Counted from the stretch's first letter, positions 20,611 to 60,592 are shown. The stretch: DNA of 64,000 nt from an uncultured Gammaproteobacteria bacterium (GCA_964422865.1 CAYRCU010000002.1:8323-72322), one strand, 5' to 3'. Notes: generated by a model not told the origin, from the sequence alone. Made by a program: numbers and translations.

Positions 20611-21063
20611 ATGAAATGTCGATTTTGCGGTTTTTCAGAGACACAAGTTTTGGAGTCTCGGGTAAGTGAGGATGGTGATGTGGTCAGACGGAGGAGAGAG
20701 TGTGTTGGGTGTGAGAAGAGATTTACGACGTATGAGCGAGCGAAGCAGAGTGTTCTTTGGGTTGTGAAGAAAGATGGGAGACGCGAATCTTTTGACAGAG
20801 AGAAAACTAAAAGAGGAATACTCAGGGCTATTGAAAAGCGGGCAGTGAGCTTGGATTTGGTGGACGACATTGTTGACAGTGTTGAGCGGGAGATGCTTAA
20901 GAAGCAGAGTGAGGAAGTTTCATCGAGACTTATTGGAAATGCGATTTTGAGAAGATTGAAAAGAGTTGATAAGGTTGCTTGGCTTAGGTTTGCGAGCGTT
21001 TACCTTGAATTTGAAGATTTGGAAGATTTTGAAAAAGCGATGAAAAGCAGGGTTGGGACTTGA
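20611..21063 (+). CDS. nrdR: transcriptional repressor NrdR
   Basis: MKCRFCGF...RRRRECVGCEKRFTTYER zinc-ribbon plus ATP-cone, closely matching NrdR. Confidence 0.85.
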   Translation: MKCRFCGFSETQVLESRVSEDGDVVRRRRECVGCEKRFTTYERAKQSVLWVVKKDGRRESFDREKTKRGILRAIEKRAVSLDLVDDIVDSVEREMLKKQSEEVSSRLIGNAILRRLKRVDKVAWLRFASVYLEFEDLEDFEKAMKSRVGT

Positions 21064-21070
21064 AGGAAAA

Positions 21071-23563
21071 ATGGAAATACAAATTACAGGAGGTTATAAA
21101 AAATACAAGAGAAAAGCGGCGGGGCGCAGTGCAAAGCAATTTCTTGAGTCGATGAAGTTGTGGGCATATGCGGATGTCGTTTCGCAGGTGAAAAAGAGAC
21201 TTGGTAAGGTTCCCGAGAAACCTGTTGATTTACCTGTTGGAGAGTGGAGTGAGCAGGCCCTGCGGGTGCTTGGAGAGAGGTATTTGGTAAAAAATGAAGC
21301 GGGGGATGTCGTGGAGACACCGGAGGATATGTGTTGGAGGGTTTCTTGGGAGATTGCTTCCGCGGAGGTTTTGTGGGGAGCCAGCAGGGCAAAAGTTGAA
21401 GAGGTGGCGCGAGAGTTTTATTCCCTTTTGGTTAACAGGAAGTTTTTGCCGAATTCACCTACACTTATGAATGCCGGGACGGGAAACAATTTACAGTTTT
21501 CTGCCTGTTTTGTTTTGCCGGTGGAGGATTCCATGGAGGGAATTTTTGATGCTCTTAAAAATCAGGCAATGATTCATAAAAGTGGTGGCGGTACAGGATT
21601 TTCTTTTACAAGACTTAGGCCAAGAGGGTCGATAGTGAAGACAAGTACTGGGACTGCTTCCGGTCCCGTGAGTTTTATGAGGATTTTTGATGCGGCTACG
21701 AATGAGGTGAAGCAGGGAGGGAAGAGGAGAGGAGCCAATATGGGGATACTTCGTGTGGATCATCCGGACATACAGGAATTTATTCACTGCAAAGACGAAG
21801 GCGGAATATCGAACTTTAATATTTCGGTTGCGATTACGGATAAATTCATGGAAGCTTTGGATAGTGGTGGTGATTATGACTTGATTGACCCCAGGAATGG
21901 AAAGAAGGCGGGATCTTTGTCTGCGGCGGAGGTATTTAATGAAATAGCGGAAAGTGCTTGGCGTACCGGAGATCCGGGGCTTGTGTTTATTGATCAGATA
22001 AACAAGAGCAGTGCGAATCCTGTTCCGGGTCTTGGGCCGATTGAAGCTACGAACCCATGCGGAGAGCAACCATTGTACCCTTTTGATTCTTGTAATTTGG
22101 GGAGTATTTTTCTTACTTATTTTGTAAGGGATATGGATAATGGAAGGCGCGGCGTGGATTGGAGAGAACTTAAAAAGACAATAAGGAAGGCTGTTCGATT
22201 TATGGATAATGTTATCGAAGTGAACCCTTATCCTTTGGATTCAATCAGAAGGATGTCTTTGGGGGTTAGAAGGATAGGACTTGGAATTGGGGGGTGGGCG
22301 GACATGTTGATTGAACTTGGGATTCCTTATGATTCAGAGGAGGCCCTGGAACTTGCCAGAAAAGTTATGAAGACAATATCGGAGGAGGCAAGTTTGGAGA
22401 GTCAGAGGCTTGCTCAGGAAAGAGGACCCTTTCCTCTCTTTGAATATAGTATTTATAAAAACAGCAAGCCACGGAGACATTCAACTGTTACAACAATTGC
22501 GCCTACGGGAAGTATTTCAATAATTGCCGATGCTTCCGGGGGAATAGAACCGATATTTGCCATTGCCTATAGACATGTTGTGAAAGATAAGCATCTTGAT
22601 AGGACTTTAACGTTTATAAATCCAAGATTTGAGGAAGTTTCAAGAGCGCGGGGTTTTTGGAATGAGGAGATACGAAAGGTTGTTTTGGAACACGGAACTG
22701 TTCGAGGCATTTCTGAAATCCCAAAGGATGTGAGAGATGTTTTTGGGACTGCGCATGAAATTCATCACGATTGGCATATTAGAATGCAGGCTGCGTTTCA
22801 GGAATTTACAGAAAATGCTGTCAGCAAAACTATAAATTTGCGGAATGAAGTGAACGTTGAGGATATAAAGGAGGTTTACAAGTTTAGCTGGAAGTCCGGT
22901 TGTCGAGGAATAACGGTTTTTAGAGACGGATGCAAGGATATGCAGGTTTTGAATTTGGGAATTAAAGATGGGAGTGAAAAGGAAATATTGGAGGACGGGG
23001 AGCGAATGGTTGAAAGGTCGTATAAGGTAGCGGGCTCAACGTATAAGCTTGATACTCCGGTGGGTACGGCTTTTGTGACTATTAATGAGGATGGGGACGG
23101 AGAGCCGATTGAAGTTTTCATAAATGTTGGAAAGGCCGGGAGTGATGTTACGGCTGTTGCGGAGGCTTTGGGAAGAATGATCTCAACCTCTTTGAGACTG
23201 AAAGGATATCTTTCTCCCAGAGAGCGAGCTCAGGAAATTGCCCATCAACTTTCCGGGATTGGGGGAAGAAGAAGTGTTGGCTTTGGCCCTAATAGGATCA
23301 GAAGTTTACCGGATGCCGTGGCGGTGGCTTTGGGCAACCATTTGGGTTTTAAATTGAATGGAAGCGGGAAGCATAATGTTGATGGGAGAGTAAACACACA
23401 CAGTGAAGGTGGTAACGGTACTATGGGGAAGGAGGCGACCGAAAAGATGCAGGCGCAAACTCAGTTTGTTGGGGGAGATATTTGCCCATCTTGCGGGTCG
23501 GGGACGTTTATATATGAGGAAGGTTGTTCGAAGTGTTATGCCTGCGGACACAGTGAGTGCTAG
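21071..23563 (+). CDS. nrdJ: ribonucleotide reductase, class II (adenosylcobalamin-dependent)
   Basis: PTLMNAGT, CFVLPVEDSMEGIF and SGGGTGFSFTRLRPRGS motifs of B12-dependent RNR; C-terminal Cys-rich zinc ribbon; start placed at the Met after the nrdR stop. Confidence 0.85.
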   Translation: MEIQITGGYKKYKRKAAGRSAKQFLESMKLWAYADVVSQVKKRLGKVPEKPVDLPVGEWSEQALRVLGERYLVKNEAGDVVETPEDMCWRVSWEIASAEVLWGASRAKVEEVAREFYSLLVNRKFLPNSPTLMNAGTGNNLQFSACFVLPVEDSMEGIFDALKNQAMIHKSGGGTGFSFTRLRPRGSIVKTSTGTASGPVSFMRIFDAATNEVKQGGKRRGANMGILRVDHPDIQEFIHCKDEGGISNFNISVAITDKFMEALDSGGDYDLIDPRNGKKAGSLSAAEVFNEIAESAWRTGDPGLVFIDQINKSSANPVPGLGPIEATNPCGEQPLYPFDSCNLGSIFLTYFVRDMDNGRRGVDWRELKKTIRKAVRFMDNVIEVNPYPLDSIRRMSLGVRRIGLGIGGWADMLIELGIPYDSEEALELARKVMKTISEEASLESQRLAQERGPFPLFEYSIYKNSKPRRHSTVTTIAPTGSISIIADASGGIEPIFAIAYRHVVKDKHLDRTLTFINPRFEEVSRARGFWNEEIRKVVLEHGTVRGISEIPKDVRDVFGTAHEIHHDWHIRMQAAFQEFTENAVSKTINLRNEVNVEDIKEVYKFSWKSGCRGITVFRDGCKDMQVLNLGIKDGSEKEILEDGERMVERSYKVAGSTYKLDTPVGTAFVTINEDGDGEPIEVFINVGKAGSDVTAVAEALGRMISTSLRLKGYLSPRERAQEIAHQLSGIGGRRSVGFGPNRIRSLPDAVAVALGNHLGFKLNGSGKHNVDGRVNTHSEGGNGTMGKEATEKMQAQTQFVGGDICPSCGSGTFIYEEGCSKCYACGHSEC

Positions 23564-26815: not shown

Positions 26816-26888
26816 GGAGCCGTAACTCAGTGGTTAGAGTGCCAATCTTATAAGTTGGAAGTCGATGGTTCGAATCCATCCGGCTCCA
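26816..26888 (+). tRNA. tRNA-Ile (anticodon TAT)
   Basis: 73 nt cloverleaf: acceptor GGAGCCG/CGGCTCC, D stem ACTC/GAGT, anticodon stem CCAAT/GTTGG with loop CTTATAA, T arm GATGG-TTCGAAT-CCATC. Confidence 0.75.
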
Positions 26889-27180
26889 CAAAACAGTTTC
26901 GCCGTACGTCTTCGGAACGCATTGAAAAGAACTTCGTGTTGTGCATGGCGAATCCATCCGGCTCCACAAAACAGTTCCGCCGTACGTCTTCGGAACGCTT
27001 TGAAAGGAAAGAAGTTTATGCATGGCGAATCCATCCGGCTCCACAAAACAGTTTCGCCGTACGTCTTCGGAACGCATTGAAAAGAACTTCGTGTTGTGCA
27101 TGGCGAATCCATCCGGCTCCACAAAACAGTTCCGCCGTATGTCTAAAGGAACGCATTGGAAGGAAGTTTGGGAGTTTGTT
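26871..27180. repeat. 4 tandem units (~78 bp) that each begin with the 3' end of the tRNA-Ile(TAT) gene
   Basis: GAATCCATCCGGCTCCACAAAACAGTTYCGCCGTACGTCTTCGGAACGC... starts at 26871, 26949, 27026 and 27104; the first unit is the tRNA 3' end itself. Confidence 0.85.
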
Positions 27181-28690: not shown

Positions 28691-28849
28691 GGTGAGCTTG
28701 GGTTGGGAAGCAGGAGCTTGGCCAACTGGATATTAGATTAGCCAGGGTAGCTCAGTTGGTAAGCAAAGCTTGGCCAACTGGATATTAGATTAGCCAGGGT
28801 AGCTCAGTTGGTAAGCAAAGCTTGGCCACCTGAGCAAATTGATAAGCCA
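28691..28849. repeat. tandem units made of the tRNA(CAT) 5' fragment followed by a hairpin-forming conserved motif
   Basis: Units at 28741-28792 and 28793-28849 are GCCAGGGTAGCTCAGTTGGTA + AGCAAAGCTTGGCCA(A/C)CTG...; a degenerate unit lies at 28691-28740; downstream CCAACTG is complementary to the D-loop CAGTTGG. Confidence 0.8.
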
Positions 28850-28922
28850 GCCAGGGTAGCTCAGTTGGTAGAGCACAGGATTCATAAACCTGCGGTCGCG
28901 AGTTCGATCCTCGCCCCTGGTA
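28850..28922 (+). tRNA. tRNA with anticodon CAT (Met or Ile2-lysidine type)
   Basis: GCCAGGG acceptor, TAGCTCAGTTGGTAGAGC D arm, anticodon loop TTCATAA, T arm GCGAG-TTCGATC-CTCGC, 3' CCCTGGT. Confidence 0.7.
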
Positions 28923-28927
28923 CTTTT

Positions 28928-43350: not shown

Positions 43351-43634
43351 GTAAGAAGGATTTTGTTGCCATTGGTGATGTTTTGGATAATTATGATGTG
43401 GAGGAAGATAAATATATTTCCAGGGAGTTCCAGAAGTATGGGTATGATCTGGCAAAAGAGCTGGGAGATTTGAAACACAAGGCACTTTATATAAAGCTCG
43501 CTAAGGAAACACCCAGAGGTTTTTTAGAAGCTGCCAGGAATTTTGTAAAGGATGCTCAGAGGGTGAGAAGCAAACCAAGACTTTTTATGTGGAAGCTTTC
43601 AAAACTGAAAGCTGAACACACAAAAGCGAAGTGA
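43347..43634 (+). CDS. hypothetical protein whose 3' end seeds a tandem repeat
   Basis: 95 aa; C-terminus LFMWKLSKLKAEHTKAK is duplicated three times downstream. Confidence 0.35.
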   Translation: MSKKDFVAIGDVLDNYDVEEDKYISREFQKYGYDLAKELGDLKHKALYIKLAKETPRGFLEAARNFVKDAQRVRSKPRLFMWKLSKLKAEHTKAK

Positions 43635-43805
43635 TTATGTGGAAGCTTTCGCAGCTGAAAGCGAAGAAGGCTGAACACACAAAAGCGAAGTGATTATGTG
43701 GAAGCTTTCAAAACTGAAGGCTGAACACACAAGAACAGAGTGATTATGTGGAAGCTTTCAAAACTGAAAGCGGAGAAAGCGACAAACAAGGGAAGAAAGA
43801 AGAAT
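43585..43805. repeat. 4 tandem units (50-62 bp), each a mini-ORF MWKLSKLKAE... with its own ATG and TGA
   Basis: TTATGTGGAAGCTTTCAAAACTGAAAGCTGAACACACAAAAGCGAAGTGA and variants at 43585, 43635, 43694 and 43744. Confidence 0.8.
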
Positions 43806-50039: not shown

Positions 50040-50097
50040 TGCATACCCATCGTCATGCGGTGCAAGCACCTGTATTTTCAATATAGACGATGGGGCC
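50040..50097 (-). repeat. partial duplicate of the tRNA-Glu 5' end with an adjacent complementary arm
   Basis: GGCCCCATCGTCTA (tRNA nt 1-14) recurs at 50084-50097; GACGATGGG, complementary to nt 4-12, lies at about 50046-50054 (minus-strand sense). Confidence 0.6.
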
Positions 50098-52719: not shown

Positions 52720-53742
52720 ATGGATGATACTGCCCGACCAAGAATGATGGTTGAAGAGGTTCCTTCTGTGTTTCCGCAGCAAGAAGCTCAGGGGGTGGAT
52801 GAAGTTGTTCAAAAGCTGCCTGTGGTATCTAAAAGGAGTTTTTCTTTTAGAGCATTGGTTTTTATAGTTCCGGGAGTTCTTCTTTTGGTTGCGATACTTG
52901 TTGGAATGTATTTGGCAGATATTTTTTTTGAGGGAAATGAACAAGTTGTTGTTACTTCAACCCCCTTTCCTTCTTTGATTCCTGCCACGCCTGTTGCTTC
53001 TTTGGCTCCTGTTTCAAAATTATTGCTATATGTAAATGGGGACGGGGGATTTAAGTTTAGTTATTTGGATGATGTGGAGATCTTGGAATGTGCGGGTAGA
53101 GTGGAGTTGTTTGCTAATAAGAGTGTTCAGAAAACTTGTGAAGGAATGGGGGTTGTGTCGGTAATTTATGATGAGGATCAGTTTGAGTCAATTCAAGGGT
53201 TTGAGACAAGTGGGAAGGAGTTGGGGGAGAGAAAGTTGTTGGTGGTTTTGAGGGATGAGAGATATAGAAATGTTTATCAGAAGGTGGTGTTGAGTCTTAA
53301 GGCTTTAGTTGTTGATACTTCGGACTGGAGCTTGTATGAGAACGCTGTTGGAAAATACAGCTTTCTTTACCCCTCGGACTGGAAAGTTACGGAGCTTGAG
53401 AGTGGGAATGTTGTAGTTCAAAAAGATGAAGAGGAAAAGGACCACTGGATTTATCTTGTTGAATATACGGGAAGTGTAAGTGATGCTGAGCTTACGGCTA
53501 GTGAGATTTCTTCTTCTACTGTTGGTTTGGCTGGTTGGGACGGAGTACCCGAAGTGAATGTTCGCAATCTTTCCGGAGGGACAGCGCAGGTGATTGAAGG
53601 AAAGCTTGGAGATGTGTGGCAAGTGTATGTGGTTTTGTGGTACAAGGACAGATTGTACCAAATGAGTTGGGTGGATACTTTGAGTAGACAGGAGAGTGCA
53701 AACTTTGAGGCGATTATATCCAGTTTTGAACTTGTGAATTAG
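52720..53742 (+). CDS. hypothetical membrane-anchored protein (lies between the 16S and 23S genes)
   Basis: 340 aa with an N-terminal TM (LVFIVPGVLLLVAILVGMYL); no family recognised. Confidence 0.35.
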   Translation: MDDTARPRMMVEEVPSVFPQQEAQGVDEVVQKLPVVSKRSFSFRALVFIVPGVLLLVAILVGMYLADIFFEGNEQVVVTSTPFPSLIPATPVASLAPVSKLLLYVNGDGGFKFSYLDDVEILECAGRVELFANKSVQKTCEGMGVVSVIYDEDQFESIQGFETSGKELGERKLLVVLRDERYRNVYQKVVLSLKALVVDTSDWSLYENAVGKYSFLYPSDWKVTELESGNVVVQKDEEEKDHWIYLVEYTGSVSDAELTASEISSSTVGLAGWDGVPEVNVRNLSGGTAQVIEGKLGDVWQVYVVLWYKDRLYQMSWVDTLSRQESANFEAIISSFELVN

Positions 53743-55877
53743 TGATCTTTTGAAGATTTTTTACCCCAACGTTCTTGAGAGATTCTTATTACTTTACTTC
53801 TGTTTTGGTTTGCTGATGTTGGAAGCGGAAGAGTGTTGGCTAAAAACGGACGACTTGTATAGCCATCTATTGTAAGCTTTGCTGCTATTTGAAAGTTGTC
53901 CAGGTTTACAAGATCCTTTTTTTCGAAAACTTCTGCAAATTCTTTATATAGCACTTCGGCGTCTTCAGCCCCTATGGCAAAGGAGATAAGAGAGCCTACG
54001 TTTCCAAGGATTGCTTTTTGCACTTCTTCTGGGATTTGGGCCATGTATTGATTGGCAAGCATTAGGTTTAGGCGGTATTTTCTTGCTTCTGAAAGAATTT
54101 TAATGAATGATTCTGTAGCGAAGTTTTGAAACTCGTCAACGTAAAGAAAGAAGTCTGTGCGCTCTTCCATGGGGAAATTGACCCTGCGCATGGCTGCTAG
54201 TTGAAATTTTGTAATGAGAACTGCTCCCAGGAGTGCTGCGTTATCTTCACCGAGACGACCTTGAGAGAGATTTGCCAGGAAGATTTTTTGATTATTCATT
54301 ATGTCATCGAAATGAATTGTGCTTTTAGGGCTTCCGATGATACGACGAATTAGGGGGGAGGTGACAAATTGTCCAACTTTGTTTTGAATAGGGGAAATGG
54401 CTTCTTTTTGGAGTCGGTCCGGCATTTTTTCATATTCTTGCTTCCAAAAGTGAATGAGACTTTGATCTTTGACTTGTTCGAGGGCCCTTGCTCTGTAGCG
54501 GGTATTTGCAAGAAGTTTTAGAACATCTTGCAGGGTTGCTCCGTTAATGTGGGTGAGTGTTAAAAACGAGTTTCTGAGAATGTATTCCATACGAGCTGAC
54601 CAAACATTGGCCCAGATTTTTGTGAATACTGCCATGAGTCCGGAGACAACTAGCTCTGCTTCTTCTTGATTGGTGACTTCCAAGGGATTAATGACGATGG
54701 GTGACTGCCGATCTGAGGGATTAAAATAGATGGTGTCGTTTATTCTGTGACTTGGAATGTAGTTTAAGAGATCTTCACAAAGGTCGCCGTGAGGGTCAAT
54801 TACACCAAGACCTCGGCTTTTTTTTATGTCGTCGATACACATGTTTGCGATGAGTGTGGATTTCCCTGTGCCGGTTTTTCCCACGACCCAAATATGGCGC
54901 CTTCGATCATTGTTTTTTATTCCAAAGATTGTGTCATGGTTTTTGAATTGGGTGCGTGCAAAGAAGTTTACCAAAGCTTTTTCTTCAGTTGTTTTGTCGG
55001 TTGCGATTGGAAGGTTATCGGGAGCCTCGGAAAGGACGGAAGTCCCCCAGGCGATGGAGGCGGTTTTTACTTTTTCGCTGGGGAGGTGCCAGAGAGTAGC
55101 GAGCTCCATGATGTTTAGGATTTGTTTGTCGGTAACAGTTCTTTCAAGTAATGCTTTTTGAGACTTTGATTTTGATTCCAACAGGCCTCTTTTTTTAGTT
55201 ACAAAGCTGTTTCCGTCGGATCGAGTGAATACTCCAAGAGCAGATGAAAGTTCCGTAAGGACCCTTTTGTTGTTTGAGGCGATGCGAAGGGAAACCAAAA
55301 AACCTGGGTAAGAAATTTTTTCTTTTATAATGGAAGCGTCCGGATGTGGGGAGTAAGTTCCATCCTCATTTTTTGTGCCGTGGTCCGCGTAACTTTGACC
55401 TGTGGATTGCCATTTGGTGCTTGTAGCCTCAAGGGCTAATTGGATTATTGTTATTTCGGTGGGGTTACCTTTGGTGAGAATTGTGAGAAGGCTTGAGAGA
55501 GGATCGATATCGGTGAAATTTGTATAAGTAGCCAGAGGATAGTAATTACCTCTTTTTAGAGTTAATTCTTTGATATAGAGCGGGGACTCGCTTTTTAGGG
55601 GATCTTGGGTTGGCTCTATTATTACAAGAGGGTATGATGATCGGATTTGAGCCTCTATAAATGGCAGTAGTTCAGTGTTACAGGTTATTTGAAAGTGGAT
55701 TTGTTGGTTAATAAGGGCTATTTCGAGTGCAAGAGGGGCGGCGCGCTTGCCTTTGAGACGATCCAGATTCGAGACGCTGTTTATTTGGGTAAGGGTTGCC
55801 AGAAAAGTTTGAGCAGCTTCTGGTGTAACTTCTGTGTTCCTTGGTATTTTAAGAAAAAGAGTAGTGAGGTTTTGCAT
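53739..55877 (-). CDS. type IV secretion coupling protein-like ATPase (TraD/TrwB/VirD4 family), paralog
   Basis: VVGKTGTGKSTLI, DPHGD, FNPSDRQSPIVINPLE, YVDEFQNFAT; same domain order as the 24464 gene but lacking the N-terminal TM. Confidence 0.6.
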   Translation of the reverse strand: MQNLTTLFLKIPRNTEVTPEAAQTFLATLTQINSVSNLDRLKGKRAAPLALEIALINQQIHFQITCNTELLPFIEAQIRSSYPLVIIEPTQDPLKSESPLYIKELTLKRGNYYPLATYTNFTDIDPLSSLLTILTKGNPTEITIIQLALEATSTKWQSTGQSYADHGTKNEDGTYSPHPDASIIKEKISYPGFLVSLRIASNNKRVLTELSSALGVFTRSDGNSFVTKKRGLLESKSKSQKALLERTVTDKQILNIMELATLWHLPSEKVKTASIAWGTSVLSEAPDNLPIATDKTTEEKALVNFFARTQFKNHDTIFGIKNNDRRRHIWVVGKTGTGKSTLIANMCIDDIKKSRGLGVIDPHGDLCEDLLNYIPSHRINDTIYFNPSDRQSPIVINPLEVTNQEEAELVVSGLMAVFTKIWANVWSARMEYILRNSFLTLTHINGATLQDVLKLLANTRYRARALEQVKDQSLIHFWKQEYEKMPDRLQKEAISPIQNKVGQFVTSPLIRRIIGSPKSTIHFDDIMNNQKIFLANLSQGRLGEDNAALLGAVLITKFQLAAMRRVNFPMEERTDFFLYVDEFQNFATESFIKILSEARKYRLNLMLANQYMAQIPEEVQKAILGNVGSLISFAIGAEDAEVLYKEFAEVFEKKDLVNLDNFQIAAKLTIDGYTSRPFLANTLPLPTSANQNRSKVIRISQERWGKKSSKDH

Positions 55878-56006: not shown

Positions 56007-56213
56007 GAGTGCATAACTATTTTAACTCAAAACAATAATAAATCCAACAAAACGTGTGGTTTTATACAGATGGTTGACTGATGTGGGGTGAAAGTATATA
56101 ATTGGCATTACCTTTTTTAAGTTCGGAATAATTAATGAGAAGTAAGAGTTTAAAATTAAACACAGACCCTTTGCCTGCTTTTTGTGGGTAAAAGGGATTT
56201 AAGCTTCAAATTG

Positions 56214-56245
56214 ACCGACTTAAAAGGGTCGGTTCTTTTTATTTT
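56214..56245 (+). terminator. hairpin plus T-tract (candidate intrinsic terminator or small RNA 3' end)
   Basis: GACCGAC-TTAAAAGG-GTCGGTT followed by CTTTTTATTTT; no plus-strand CDS upstream. Confidence 0.4.
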
Positions 56246-56317
56246 GAGATGGATTGGAACTGGGCCGATAAGAACCTGGCTTTGCCAGAACCTTGACGCC
56301 CTGCTCGTTAATACTCG

Positions 56318-56432
56318 CAGGCCGTTAGCTCATCTGGTAAGCAAAGCTTGGCCAGCTGAGCTGATTGATAGATTAGGGCCGTTAGCTCATCTGGTAAGCA
56401 AAGCTTGGCCAGCTGAGCTGATTGATAGATTA
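56318..56432. repeat. 2 tandem 57-58 bp units made of the tRNA-Ala 5' fragment followed by a hairpin-forming conserved motif
   Basis: G(G)GCCGTTAGCTCATCTGGTA + AGCAAAGCTTGGCCAGCTGAGCTGATTGATAGATTA, twice; CCAGCTGAGC is nearly complementary to the D-arm GCTCATCTGG. Confidence 0.8.
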
Positions 56433-56505
56433 GGGCCGTTAGCTCATCTGGTAGAGCGTCCGGTTTGCATCCGGGAGGTGGCCGGTTCGAGTCCGGCACG
56501 GTCCA
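56433..56505 (+). tRNA. tRNA-Ala (anticodon TGC)
   Basis: GGGCCGT acceptor with G3:U70; D arm TAGCTCATCTGGTAGAGC; anticodon loop TTTGCAT; T arm GCCGG-TTCGAGT-CCGGC. Confidence 0.8.
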
Positions 56506-57215
56506 CTCGCGAGGCTCGTTGCCCGTTTGACTCGAGGAGCGCGGAGAACAAAGGACCTTTCGGTACTATGCACGGCGAGTCCGGCACGGTCCACAAAGCA
56601 ATTTGCTTTTGACTTTTGAATATCATAATTGATTGATGGTTTTTAAAAGTCAGTAGCAAAAAAGTGAGATTGTTCTTTAACATCTGAAGAGAATTTAGGT
56701 CGAAAGTCTTTACAACGCAGACAGTGGATGCCTTGGTCTAAGTTACCGAAGAAGGACGTACAAGGCCACGATAGTCGTCGGGGAGCTGCCAAGAAGCTTT
56801 GATCCGGCGGTGTCCGAATGGGGAAACCCACCCCGCTTTGGCGGGGTACTTGCAGCCCAAATTTTTTGATTTATCAGAAATATTAAGTTGCAAGGGGGAA
56901 CCAGGGGAACTGAAACATCTAAGTACCCTGAGGAAAAGAAATTAAATAAACGCCTTTGGCGTAAGATTGCCTGAGTAGCGGCGAGCGAAACGGCAAGAGC
57001 CCAAACTTTGACCTTTGCCTTCGGGTGAAGGACAGAGGGTTGTAGGATCCTAATATGGGACTTTTAACGGTAGTAGAACAGCATGGAAATGTTGGCCATA
57101 GAAGGTGATAGCCCTGTATACGAAACTGAAAAAAGCCCTAAGGAATTCCTGAGTACCACGGTCAAAATCTGTGGGAATCTGGGGGAACCATCCTCCAAGG
57201 CTAAATATAACTTAG

Positions 57216-57261
<46 letters not shown>

Positions 57262-58740
57262 GGGAGGGGAGTGAAATAGTAACTGAAACTGTTTGCGGAC
57301 AAACCGAGAGAGCCTGTGCTTGCATGGGTGATCTCGTGCCTATTGAAGAATGAACCGGCGAGTTGTCGTATGCTGCCAGCTTAAGTCAGTTAAATGACCG
57401 AGGCGTAGCGAAAGCGAGTTTGAAAGAGCGAAGAAAGCCTTGTGCTTTCATAAGTAGCATGCGGCAGACCCGAAACCAGGTGATCTAACCATGAGCAGGG
57501 TGAGTCCTATCGAAAGATGGGAGGAGGCCCGAACCGGTGTAAGTTACAATTTGCTCGGATGACTTGTGGTTAGCGGTAATATGCCAAACGAACCTGGAGA
57601 TAGCTGGTTCTCCCCGAAAGGTCTATAGGGACCGCGGCACGGAAAGGAACACTGATGGTAGAGCTACTGGATGGGGCAGCGAGAGGTAACTCAAGTTGTC
57701 TCAACCAAACTCCGAATAGCAGTGTGGGACGTGCTAGACAGCCGCATGGGGCTAAGCTCATGCGACGAAAGGGAAACAACCCAGACTCTCAGATAAGGCC
57801 TCTAAATCTTGACTAAGTTTTAAAGGAAGTTTTTTTCCACAGACAGCTAGGAGGTTGGCTTAGAAGCAGCCATCCTTTAAAGAAAGCGTAACAGCTCACT
57901 AGTCGACTTGCCTGCGCAAGCAGGTGGGAAGAAAGCGCCGAAGATTTATCGAGGATTAAGTCAAGTGCCGAAGCTGGAGCCCCGCCTTTGGCGGGGGGTA
58001 GGGGAGCGTTCCAAGGGCAGTGAAGTTCAACTGTAAAGTTGGATGGAGCGCTTGGAAGTGAGAATGCCGGTATGAGTAGCGTACAAGAGAAGTGAGAATC
58101 TTCTCCGCCGAATGCCCAAGGTTTCCGTCGGAAGGTTCGTCCGCGACGGGTTAGTCGGCTCCTAAGGCGAGGCCATATGGCGTAGTCGATGGATAGCTGG
58201 TTAAAATTCCAGCACTTTGGTAAATTCGCTTTTAACTGAGGACTGACGGAGTGAAAGAGCTTGTGGCAATTATTGAATTTTGTTGCAGAAGCCTCACCCA
58301 TCTGGTGGGAAAATCCGCCAGAGACGCAAATTATTGCGAATGGTTGAGGTGGTGCTAGTCCTGCGAGAGCAGGGCGACATGAGCTAATAGCTTCCCAGAA
58401 AAGGTTCGCAGTGAGAATTTATCAAAGCCGTACCGCAAACCGACACAGGTGGGCTGGTAGAGAATACTAAGGCGAGCGAGAGAAGGAGGGTTAAGGAACT
58501 CGGCAAATTAGCTGGACGTAAGTTCGCAAGATGTCCTGCCTCCAAATAGTAATATTGGAGGTCGCAGCTAACGATTGCTGGTCGACTGTTTATCAAAAAC
58601 ACAGGTCCGTGCAAACTCGAAAGAGGAAGTATACGGGCTGACGCTTGCCCAGTGCCGGTAAGTTAAGGGGATGGGTGATTTGCCTTCGGGCACTTTGCTT
58701 TGAACCGAAGCTCCGGTAAACGGCAGCAGTAACTATGAAC

Positions 58741-59065
58741 AAGTTGTAGTTGAGAGTGGCCTCCGCTTGAGGCGGAGTATTCGTCACTCCGTTGATTGAT
58801 AACAACGAAAAATTTGGCTATATGCTGGAACATCCCGCAAGGTCATTGGTAGGCCACCAGTTTGGCAACAAACTGGTTAACTCCTGAAAATCCAATGAAT
58901 AGGGACAATCAGCAGGAAAGACCCCGCTTAGCGGGGAATCCTCAGAGACTATACGCCAAACCTCGCAATAGTGAGGATGATATAGTCCGATCCTTATGGA
59001 GACATAGGGAGTCCTGCGGAAACGACGGGACCACCCCGCCAATGCGGGGGAGTAACAAAAAAGAA
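58741..59065 (+). mobile_element. ORF-less intron in the 23S gene (E. coli-equivalent site about 1917, inferred by flank alignment)
   Basis: Exon sequence AACTATGAAC | about 325 nt insert | TCTACGGTAGCGAAGTTCC interrupts the conserved AACTATAACGGTCCTAAGGTAGCGAAATTCC region. Confidence 0.5.
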
Positions 59066-59742: not shown

Positions 59743-60592
59743 GCTATAAGACATTTTAGCGTGACATTTGAGCTGTCTCATCCTATCGATGTTCACTGGG
59801 ACATGAGCCCGAAATATATCTTTTTGTCATAATACCGAGATGGATACTCGGAGTAATATAGGAATAAAAAATCTGGCTATATGCTAGGAAGTCTCGTCAA
59901 ACAGTAGAGTACTAGTATAATATTTATGTACTAGTAAAAATCTCTGCTCTGAGATTACTAGCAGGAAAGACTAGTTTTTTATGTGTATGTCTAATTTAAT
60001 TTCTGATGACTACATTGCTGGGTTTGTTGATGGTGAGGGGATGTTTTATATTGGTATTGTCAAATCAACCGGTTCAAGTAGAAACAAGAGCGGTTGGCAG
60101 GTAATTTACTTTTTTAAGGTATCCCAAAACCCAAACGGTAAATTTGTTCTTGATCAAATCAAGAAACGTTTGCAGTGCGGGTATATCAAAGAAAACAGCA
60201 AATCGGATCCCACAGACAAGTCACTTGCATTTGTGGTTCGTGACTTGCCAAGCATCAGAGATAAAGTTGTTACTTTTTTTCAAGATAAGTTGGTTGTTAA
60301 GAGAAAAACTTTACGGAAATTTAGTAAAGTAATCGAATTGGTGGACCAAGGAAAACATCTTGAGAAAGATGGGATGAAACAAATATTAGACATTGCGTAT
60401 TCTATGAATACCAAAAAAAGAAAGGTTTCGAAGGATAAAATTTTGTCATCCTTTTAAAAAACTAGAATCCCCACAGGCCATACGCCAGACCCCGCCAGAG
60501 GCGGGGAAGACATGGTCGGACCCCCATGGCGACATGGGGAGCTAGCGAGAAAAAGAAATCAGCTAGCCCAAGAATTACTTGGTAACAATAAT
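59743..60592 (+). mobile_element. group I-type intron in the 23S gene encoding a LAGLIDADG homing endonuclease
   Basis: Insert after GAGACAGTT; exon resumes at GTCGGACTCTATCC...AGTACGAGAGGACC; shares the motif AAAATYTGGCTATATGCTRGAA with the first intron. Confidence 0.65.
59981..60457 (+). CDS. LAGLIDADG homing endonuclease (single-motif family)
   Basis: LISDDYIAGFVDGEGMFYIGI LAGLIDADG motif; 158 aa; located inside the 23S intron. Confidence 0.8.
   Translation: MCMSNLISDDYIAGFVDGEGMFYIGIVKSTGSSRNKSGWQVIYFFKVSQNPNGKFVLDQIKKRLQCGYIKENSKSDPTDKSLAFVVRDLPSIRDKVVTFFQDKLVVKRKTLRKFSKVIELVDQGKHLEKDGMKQILDIAYSMNTKKRKVSKDKILSSF

Follow-up and report, generated by a model that had tools for sequence, protein, structure and literature searches.

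REP/REPIN elements, which are mobilised by RAYT (Y1 HUH) transposases, are short imperfect palindromes in intergenic spacers, co-transcribed, often clustered and non-autonomous, in which a hairpin with a short motif (GTAG in REP) at its foot is conserved over its full length and occurs in hundreds of copies per genome. Small dispersed repeats (SDR) of 21-27 nucleotides (nt) were reportedly described in Nostoc and other cyanobacteria by Elhai et al. in Genome Research in 2008; they look mobile, are far shorter than 100 nt, insert in nested or tandem fashion and occupy hairpin-forming contexts including stable-RNA genes, and we know of no enzyme associated with them. MITE and PATE (derivatives of IS200/IS605) are miniature, non-coding elements of at least 100 nt that have one orientation, hairpins at their ends and a fixed short target (TTAC or TTGAT for IS608 and ISDra2). 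Here, we describe a repeat array directly upstream of tRNA-Ala(TGC) in a 64,000-nt stretch of DNA (the window; GCA_964422865.1, CAYRCU010000002.1:8323-72322) deposited as an uncultured Gammaproteobacteria bacterium. On balance, we lean towards regarding this array as the trace of a small, structured repeat element that inserts itself and is either selfish or neutral, which we call the M-hairpin, of some Microgenomatia, bacteria of the candidate phyla radiation (CPR).

Among the described systems, the M-hairpin would appear to work most like REP/REPIN and the very small cyanobacterial repeats. It shares the general properties of the former, including a motif at the hairpin foot, which reads GGTA. 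However, only the apical 13-14 nt plus TGG/CCA are invariant while the stem columns vary and covary with the target; copies are few per genome (4 units per 64 kb of window, and 2-5 exact cores in assemblies with multiple matches), and the M-hairpin enters tRNA genes with a 20-nt target duplication. No RAYT was present in the gene tables of the loci fetched, a genome-wide search not having been made. The likeness to SDR extends to mobility, size, nesting and context, but phylum and sequence differ, and neither a duplication of the tRNA 5' end nor target-derived inverted arms have been reported for SDR. With MITE and PATE the element has its miniature, non-coding form, a fixed short target, TGGTA, hairpins at the ends and a single orientation to the target in common. 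MITEs, however, are bounded by terminal inverted repeats and duplicate their target over a constant length, whereas the 30-36-nt M-hairpin insert lacks terminal inverted repeats and its direct repeats vary between 4-7 and 20-29 nt. The TGGTA preference and two small hairpins per 30-nt unit recall IS200/IS605, but those elements make no target duplication, which the M-hairpin does at tRNAs, and no TnpA was identified. As far as could be found, four features have not been described together: a conserved apex, a target-copied stem, a duplication beginning at tRNA position +1 and turnover at the strain level. The family itself also appears to be undescribed. The core sequence turned up in the literature only in an unrelated paper on fungal microsatellites, and publications on repeats at CPR tRNA genes and on miniature repeats yielded no more than background.

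A repeat array directly upstream of tRNA-Ala

The array and the gene behind it comprise the following features:

56319-56375, + strand: unit 1, with tRNA-Ala nt 2-21 at 56320-56339 and A at position 1
56338-56351, + strand: conserved loop TAAGCAAAGCTTGG of unit 1
56352-56362, + strand: inverted arm CCAGCTGAGCT of unit 1
up to 56375, + strand: AT-rich tail of unit 1, with GATTA at its end
56324-56365, + strand: predicted hairpin of unit 1 (match to covariance model R1 at 56326-56363, 48.5 bits)
56376-56432, + strand: unit 2, 100% identical to unit 1 except for G at tRNA position 1
56381-56422, + strand: predicted hairpin of unit 2 (match to model R1 at 56383-56420)
56433-56506, + strand: intact tRNA-Ala(TGC) (ARAGORN; Rfam RF00005, 61.3 bits), with a G3:U70 pair and the D-loop TCTGGTA

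A tandem repeat with a period of 57 nt was identified at 56320-56453, amounting to 2.35 copies at 100% identity (TRF: period 57, 2.4 copies, 100% matches). Repeat search of the window showed the 57-nt copies 56320-56376 and 56377-56433 to be fully identical and GGCCGTTAGCTCATCTGGTA to be present three times, at 56320, 56377 and 56434, the third copy of the repeated segment being nt 1-21 of the intact tRNA-Ala itself. Each unit is composed of the 5' end of tRNA-Ala (nt 2-21 are shared by all) and a 36-nt insert, AGCAAAGCTTGGCCAGCTGAGCTGATTGATAGATTA. The initial annotation, made from the sequence alone, had described two units of 57-58 bp with just this insert immediately before the intact gene, and this description was confirmed. 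In tRNA register, unit 1 occupies 56319/56320-56375, with A as first base instead of G1, and unit 2 occupies 56376-56432. Four parts follow each other within a unit: tRNA-Ala nt 1-21 (with A at position 1 in unit 1), AGCAAAGCTTGG, the inverted arm CCAGCTGAGCT and the AT-rich tail GATTGATAGATTA. The gene downstream forms a cloverleaf with a TGC anticodon and the G3:U70 identity pair, and the upstream units were not called as tRNAs. The array adjoins tRNA-Ala and lies about 380 nt upstream of the 23S gene. As also claimed earlier (10 of 11 positions), the downstream arm pairs with the tRNA-Ala D-arm over 11 positions with one mismatch. A single unit is predicted to fold as an interrupted 18-bp hairpin (-22.9 kcal/mol, z = -3.07), and the minimum-energy fold of the precursor 56315-56506 consists of two hairpins and a normal cloverleaf (z = -3.66). 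Either strand is predicted to fold as single-stranded DNA as well.

The array is not confined to this position. The window contains four copies of the 17-mer TAAGCAAAGCTTGGCCA, two in the Ala array and two others at 28760 and 28812 (shuffle expectation 0.22; none of 100 shuffles reached four), so that the loop motif is indeed common to the tRNA(CAT) locus, as had been noted before. The AT-rich tail had also been said to resemble that of the third unit there; the Ala insert and the third Met insert match at 29 of 36 positions. The corresponding features are:

28702-28849, + strand: companion array of the 5' type preceding tRNA-Met(CAT) (28850-28923), with three units, of which one is degenerate and two have the canonical loop
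50029-50097, - strand: structure upstream of tRNA-Glu(TTC), with a 14-nt 5' fragment at 50084-50097, the turn-around GGT-GCTTGC-ACC and inverted tRNA nt 4-19 at 50046-50061

The latter has the M-hairpin architecture without the canonical loop and may represent a truncated copy.

The complete identity of the two Ala units would fit a local slippage duplication or an assembly artefact with no element behind it, the more so as a 57-nt tandem repeat is hard for short-read assemblers and contigs of the sister strain break near or inside the arrays. We nevertheless consider such an origin very improbable. The array has the form A-S-A-S-A, in which 2.35 copies imply a 20-nt segment repeated around a 37-nt insert, which a plain doubling of unique sequence would not yield. 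The insert core is found at another tRNA of the window and in 23 independent assemblies, the Met array is reproduced with identical flanks in an independent assembly, and slippage alone cannot create a conserved core or an inverted arm; at most, it explains the step from one unit to two. Simple slippage from a pre-existing leader hairpin was rejected separately, as it predicts one more core than tRNA fragments and the window shows the opposite count.

A dispersed family with a constant apex and a target-derived stem

The 19-mer core GGTAAGCAAAGCTTGGCCA was searched against one genome per bacterial and archaeal species. It was recovered in 32 stretches from 23 assemblies, compared to about four expected by chance according to our own estimate, and nearly all of the records bear the names Woesebacteria, Microgenomates or Patescibacteria. 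The tRNA-linked structure is shared by ten assemblies that were deposited under the labels 'uncultured Gammaproteobacteria' or 'Gordonia'. Motif and stem are thus conserved in 23 other assemblies, and the feature was not refuted on the point, set beforehand in the initial annotation, that they might be lacking in related genomes. The same annotation had treated the repeats as a local feature of two loci; the repeats are real, but they belong to a dispersed family that includes TGGTA sites outside tRNA genes. No match to the 19-mer was obtained in viral contigs, and a query of two units had none in phage or plasmid records.

When every context was read, about 24 copies were found to follow a tRNA 5' fragment, the tRNAs being those for Leu, Gly, Lys, Ile, His, Pro, Ala, Thr, Trp and Met, and at these tRNA-linked copies the complete tRNA begins 12-30 nt past the core. 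In those examples that were inspected, it is the fragment and not the complete tRNA that has a -10-like box in front of it, so the units would be leader RNA. All other copies occupy short spacers between genes; almost all run in the direction of the adjoining genes, and a stop codon is often 0-30 nt away. They frequently form tandem 30-nt units, TGGTAAGCAAAGCTTGGCCAGTYAAAGCCC, with up to five in a row (L014), and these units end again in TGGTA and are predicted to fold into two small hairpins each. In the last unit of four such arrays (L011, L014, L029, L031), TTGGCC stands 17-18 nt before TAAAAT. Nested insertion is visible in L028.

The constant part is an apical module of 13-14 nt, U-AAGC-AAA-GCUU-GG, which directly follows the target GGT(A). 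After it come CCA and, in inverted form, the 4-17 nt found before the GG of the target, by which target and insert together form a hairpin. The lower stem is accordingly the reverse complement of the bases before TGG, e.g., GAAATTGG/CCAATTTC at tRNA-Leu and CTCAGCTGG/CCAGCTGAG at tRNA-Thr. Across 21 aligned copies, the stem is paired in 83.8% of cells with a covariation score of 0.327 versus 0.143 in shuffles, none of 500 of which reached this value. Control structures slid by 1-3 columns scored at most 0.118, and stem lengths of 5-11 bp compare with a control mean of 0.7. The only change seen in the apical stem AAGC/GCTT is a double compensatory variant, AAGG/CCTT (L003, L007), and a U-G pair closes this stem at the junction in all 21 aligned copies.

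At tRNA genes the target is G18 G19 U20 A21 of the D-loop, and every copy comes with a direct duplication of tRNA nt 1-20/21. The complete tRNA is thereby preceded by an orphan 5' fragment, which stands beside the original promoter. Identity between fragment and tRNA amounts to 0.9-1.0 from +1 to +21, then falls to 0.6 at -1 and -2 and to about 0.3 beyond these positions (n = 20); longer duplications of 26 and 29 nt occur at two loci. Away from tRNAs the direct repeats measure 4-7 nt (TGGTA with or without a few extra bases), as opposed to 20-29 nt at tRNAs. The D-loop sequence GGTA[GA] is present in 23 of 24 occupied tRNAs but in 22 of 66 bystander tRNAs of the same loci. In the single exception, L024, the fragment stops at GG and the TA is part of the insert; hence the TGGTA preference was not imposed by the search pattern.

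Two single copies were noted in addition. In L008 (about 2560-2600, - strand), the core coincides in part with the predicted start of an rsmH-like gene, where its in-frame translation is MGKQSLAS..., so the element can sit inside, or create, an N-terminal coding extension. Upstream of tRNA-Lys(TTT) in L161 (about 21040-21093), a loop variant, GGGCCCAT-AAGCATAGCTTG-TGTGCCC, forms its hairpin on acceptor nt 1-8 and not on the D-loop.

Absence from relatives and turnover between sister strains

None of 120 metagenomic tRNA-Ala(TGC) loci with the same acceptor stem carries the core upstream, and the covariance model of the hairpin had no match in the 608,573 nt of these loci. Over a further 336,923 nt, it returned only the four window units and one weak match (E = 0.27). 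In four relatives with the same gene order, tRNA-Ala followed by 23S, whose coupling protein (T4CP) is 70-77% identical, neither the fragment nor the core nor a 3' copy was present; the D-loop of their tRNA-Ala reads TGGCTA or TGGCAT. As these relatives lack the insert, the Ala array is a lineage-specific gain.

Turnover on a shorter scale is seen in a sister strain. The contig L163 stems from an independent assembly of another sample, and its TrpRS is 99% identical. At the Met locus all aligned bases of L163 and the window are identical outside the variable units 2 and 3. The loop of unit 2 is degenerate in L163 but canonical in the window, and the tRNA-proximal unit contains CCAACTGGATATTAGAATTA in L163 versus an Ala-like 36-nt insert in the window. 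Likewise, the array behind tRNA-Ile(TAT) comprises one spacer and copy in L163 versus 3.8 copies and a partial unit in the window. With identical flanks and differing units, the arrays change faster than point mutations accumulate. The freshest unit adjoins the intact gene and degenerate units lie distally. This polarity, the alternation of repeat and spacer and the degenerate distal repeats resemble a CRISPR array, but here tRNA nt 1-21 take the place of the 'repeat', a single sequence in identical or homologous copies takes that of the 'spacers', the units number two or three and there is no cas context. The Met array of L163 answers the concern about assembly error for the family, whereas the count of two at the Ala locus is that of the one assembly; the sister-strain contig L153 ends at about window position 56202, some 118 nt before the array. 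Orphan fragments of this kind break assemblies and can mislead tRNA annotation, and they are hypervariable markers by which near-identical strains can be told apart.

These data bear on the possibility that the units are a selected module of pre-tRNA or pre-rRNA leaders, serving in protein binding, as a processing site, in 5' protection or in sequestering sequence that mispairs with the D-arm. At every tRNA-linked locus the units follow promoter-like sequences and are in sense orientation, which would suit such a role, as would non-tRNA copies almost all co-directional with the flanking genes, the strong folding with a covarying stem and a compensatory apical variant, and the promoter-like geometry of TTGGCC 17-18 nt before TAAAAT in the four arrays mentioned. 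The element is moreover kept at tRNA-Gly(GCC) in five assemblies, with a fragment identical to the tRNA and a diverging spacer. However, syntenic tRNA-Ala loci and 0.9 Mb of related metagenome loci do without the insert, which is therefore dispensable, and copy number and unit content differ between near-identical strains. Distal units are degenerate, and arrays reach five units without obvious purpose. In the inner five pairs of the variable stem, G-U pairs and A-C mismatches are equally frequent (6 versus 6); as G-U is not favoured, nothing points specifically to selection at the RNA level. No Rfam family matches, and the lack of a U-tract after the hairpin means that it is no intrinsic terminator. 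Selection as a leader module, the main rival reading, appears doubtful to us.

Further candidates were tried and rejected. At tRNA loci the core was dismissed as a -35 box for the tRNA, because TTGGCC and the closest TAGATT are 15 nt apart at Ala and 10 nt apart at Met; the 17-18-nt geometry is restricted to some sites outside tRNA genes. A sigma-54 promoter on the opposite strand failed on inspection, the spacing of its GG and GC elements being one base short. No Rfam intron core was found in 56200-56720 at E up to 10 and the 5' end of the 23S intron is unrelated, contrary to a relic of a group I intron P1; tRNA was the sole Rfam match in this region, whether at the gathering threshold or as a credible score at E up to 10. 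A scan for intrinsic terminators listed none in 56319-56432, where the hairpin is followed by the tail GATTGATAGATTA.

A partner family at the 3' end of tRNA genes

A second duplication, unmentioned in the initial annotation, lies on the other side of the gene. Beyond a 69-nt spacer, 56576-56594 repeats the final 19 nt of tRNA-Ala (56488-56506), and tRNA-Ala is therefore flanked by both families, the 5' type and the 3' type:

56507-56575, + strand: 3'-type spacer of 69 nt, ending in TATGCACGGCGA, with homologues among the spacers that follow other tRNAs of the window and of further Microgenomates assemblies
56576-56594, + strand: second tRNA-Ala 3' end, CGAGTCCGGCACGGTCCAC, from the T-loop to nt 74
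26871-27165, + strand: companion 3'-type array, 78-nt period with 3.8 copies, starting in the T-loop of tRNA-Ile(TAT) at 26816-26889

The stretch from the T-loop to nt 73/74 is repeated after a spacer of 40-70 nt at tRNA-Ala, tRNA-Ile(TAT) and six tRNAs of other assemblies (L003, L009, L010, L017, L032). The spacer is conserved and homologous between loci (...TTCGATAGTGCCA...GTGTTGTGCACGGCGA|ATCC) and ends in GTGCACGGCGA. The break points of the two families fall in the two conserved loops of the tRNA. In a folded tRNA, G19 of the D-loop pairs with C56 of the T-loop. The location of the break points might reflect either an RNA intermediate or the fact that these loops are the sole sequence blocks common to all tRNA genes. 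The tRNA-Ile(TAT) itself has an anticodon that is uncommon in bacteria and is positioned 13 nt downstream of an extended -10 box, TGGTAAAAT. Fragment duplications with unrelated inserts were seen at further metagenomic tRNA-Ala loci, at the 5' or 3' side (L033, L037, L083, L136); in L037, 75 nt including the promoter are duplicated with the junction again after TGG, and L136 has an insertion in the T-loop copy.

Duplications that end at a tRNA boundary, at +1 in the 5' type and at nt 73/74 in the 3' type, raise the question of whether the units are scars of site-specific integration, in which an integrative element with a tRNA segment of its own attached at the gene, a later deletion left joined att ends (a CIME-like remnant) and accretion gave tandem copies. 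Sublocations of integration within tRNA genes were reportedly described by Williams in 2002, and the boundary pattern is as at tRNA attachment sites; the 3'-type junction in the T-loop corresponds to a classical integrase sublocation and the tandem arrays resemble accretion. Integrative islands, phages and CIMEs likewise keep the tRNA intact by doubling the segment from the crossover to the tRNA end and accrete in tandem. Here, however, the insert is geneless and measures 20-70 nt (20-36 nt for the whole 5'-type insert), the 5' part of the tRNA is duplicated, which is an unusual integration site, and a single 13-nt core and a single 3' spacer family occur at no fewer than ten tRNA species, each of which would need a separate attP. 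According to the gene tables, no integrase gene adjoins any locus inspected; viral contigs and phage or plasmid records contained no match, and the target-derived inverted arm is left unexplained. An origin as integration scars is accordingly improbable.

The pairing of the two families permits a more far-reaching interpretation, which we put forward tentatively. The M-hairpin and its mirror-image T-loop partner may form a new class of micro-elements that target the GG of the D-loop and the T-loop, make their own stem by snap-back on single-stranded DNA or on a tRNA-fragment intermediate, have no dedicated transposase and preserve essential tRNA genes through the duplication from the loop to the mature end; or else genome-reduced CPR bacteria may have co-opted the units as a module of the pre-tRNA leader.

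A possible route of insertion, and points that weigh against an insertional element

Any particular mechanism for the M-hairpin is something that we infer rather than observe, and it carries much less weight than the element reading itself. The insert might be copied in via template switching at the TGGTA microhomology, or by an enzyme acting on single-stranded DNA. A nascent CCA end would snap back on TGG and copy the flank of the target in inverted form, and synthesis would then resume upstream on the original template, thereby duplicating a variable stretch of the target. In an essential single-copy tRNA gene, survival would be possible only if the duplication reaches at least +1; we propose that the repeat starts there because the gene stays functional in such events alone. 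Provided that duplications are generally short, the surviving ones would accumulate at the minimum viable length, which would result in a sharp +1 boundary with a small tail of longer duplications, and in short repeats at non-essential sites. Quasi-palindrome template switching and fold-back DUP-INV-DUP events provide a parallel, as the succession of direct copy, turn-around, inverted copy and direct copy is the product of two template switches at a hairpin; those events, however, are sporadic and lack a turn-around sequence common to many loci and genomes. An enzyme that acts on hairpin DNA in the manner of IS200/IS605 is conceivable as well.

Subsequently, arrays would grow at the tRNA-proximal end by re-insertion or by slippage between the 20-nt repeats while the distal end decays. 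Slippage or repeated insertion would expand, contract and homogenise the arrays, so that the orphan fragment stays identical to the tRNA. At the Ala locus, both units would be transcribed in the leader of pre-tRNA-Ala, fold as two hairpins and be removed by RNase P, and no benefit to the cell would be required. Transfer between tRNA loci by D-arm homology was rejected as a general route, since the chimeric acceptor stems that it predicts were not seen. If snap-back during replication is what happens, the family would be a natural example of enzyme-free palindrome seeding and spread. If an enzyme is involved, it would recognise TGGTA in hairpin DNA and might be of practical interest.

Several observations weigh against the interpretation as an insertional element. 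The inverted arm CCAGCTGAGCT of the Ala units is complementary to AGCTCAGCTGG, the D-arm of a relative (L158), and not to CATCTGG of the window itself, which indicates that the arm is not always templated locally; a substitution may have been followed by homogenisation of the three direct copies, or else the insert derives from a different locus. The element could not be linked to any transposase, integrase or reverse transcriptase, the window and the genomes not being annotated in full. The retention at tRNA-Gly(GCC) in five assemblies has been mentioned; the orphan fragment, furthermore, tracks changes of its own tRNA (position 7 in L005/L018, positions 5-7 at Gly) while the insert diverges, which requires concerted evolution or hints at selection. 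How the element colonises new tRNA species without leaving a chimeric acceptor stem is not accounted for by the model. The low copy number (about 2-5 exact cores per genome in assemblies with multiple matches) is unlike that of REP or MITEs. The differences between sister strains come from short-read assemblies, which are able to mis-resolve tandem repeats, and the 32 loci were chosen by a perfect core, by which conservation of the core cannot be judged from them.

Genomic context of the array

The GC skew is positive (+0.14 to +0.47) in every 2-kb window across positions 1-64000 and never changes sign. Between 51057 and 56700, an open reading frame (ORF) of 340 amino acids and a gene resembling a type IV secretion coupling protein (53739-55877, - strand) split 16S from 23S, and tRNA-Ile(GAT) is located on the opposite strand; this gene order is kept in relatives. 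The nearest protein relatives are annotated as Patescibacteria, Woesebacteria or Collierbacteria, and an exact-protein look-up of the ORF at 52720-53742 gave no record. One-directional GC skew has been described for the Microgenomates order UBA1400 (PMC7143001), and the split 16S/23S, the opposite-strand tRNA-Ile(GAT), a group I intron in 23S and the skew match the description of that order (PMC7143001). Mobile DNA is reportedly almost absent from CPR bacteria, and the closest described genome is stated to have no mobile elements (PMC7143001). The M-hairpin family shows active repeats to be present even in these tiny genomes, within the most essential genes.

Upstream of the array, the following features were recorded:

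56074-56102, + strand: best sigma-70-like promoter upstream of the array, TTGACT-17-TATAAT, 11/12 matches
56213-56234: terminator-like hairpin with a T-run, about 110 nt after that promoter
56293-56298, + strand: TTGACG box, without a -10 hexamer at 16-18 nt

The TTGACG box had been reported at 56294; it exists, though at the coordinates given here, but with no -10 hexamer 16-18 nt downstream and no entry in the promoter scan its status as a promoter is unsupported. By its position, the array may belong to the pre-23S leader, as had been suggested earlier. The promoter at 56074-56102 and the terminator-like hairpin could belong to a small transcript or mark the start of the 23S operon leader. 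Between tRNA-Ala and 23S, TTGTTCTTTAACA at 56670-56682 resembles the boxA antitermination motif, which reads TGCTCTTTAACAA in E. coli, and similar sequences are present in the relatives L156-L161. Elsewhere in the window, a further tandem repeat occupies 43585-43777 (period 50-59 nt, 3.1-3.6 copies, 78-82% matches). The group I intron of the 23S gene is located at 58727-59009 (Rfam, 71.2 bits), and an ORF of 158 amino acids at 59981-60457.

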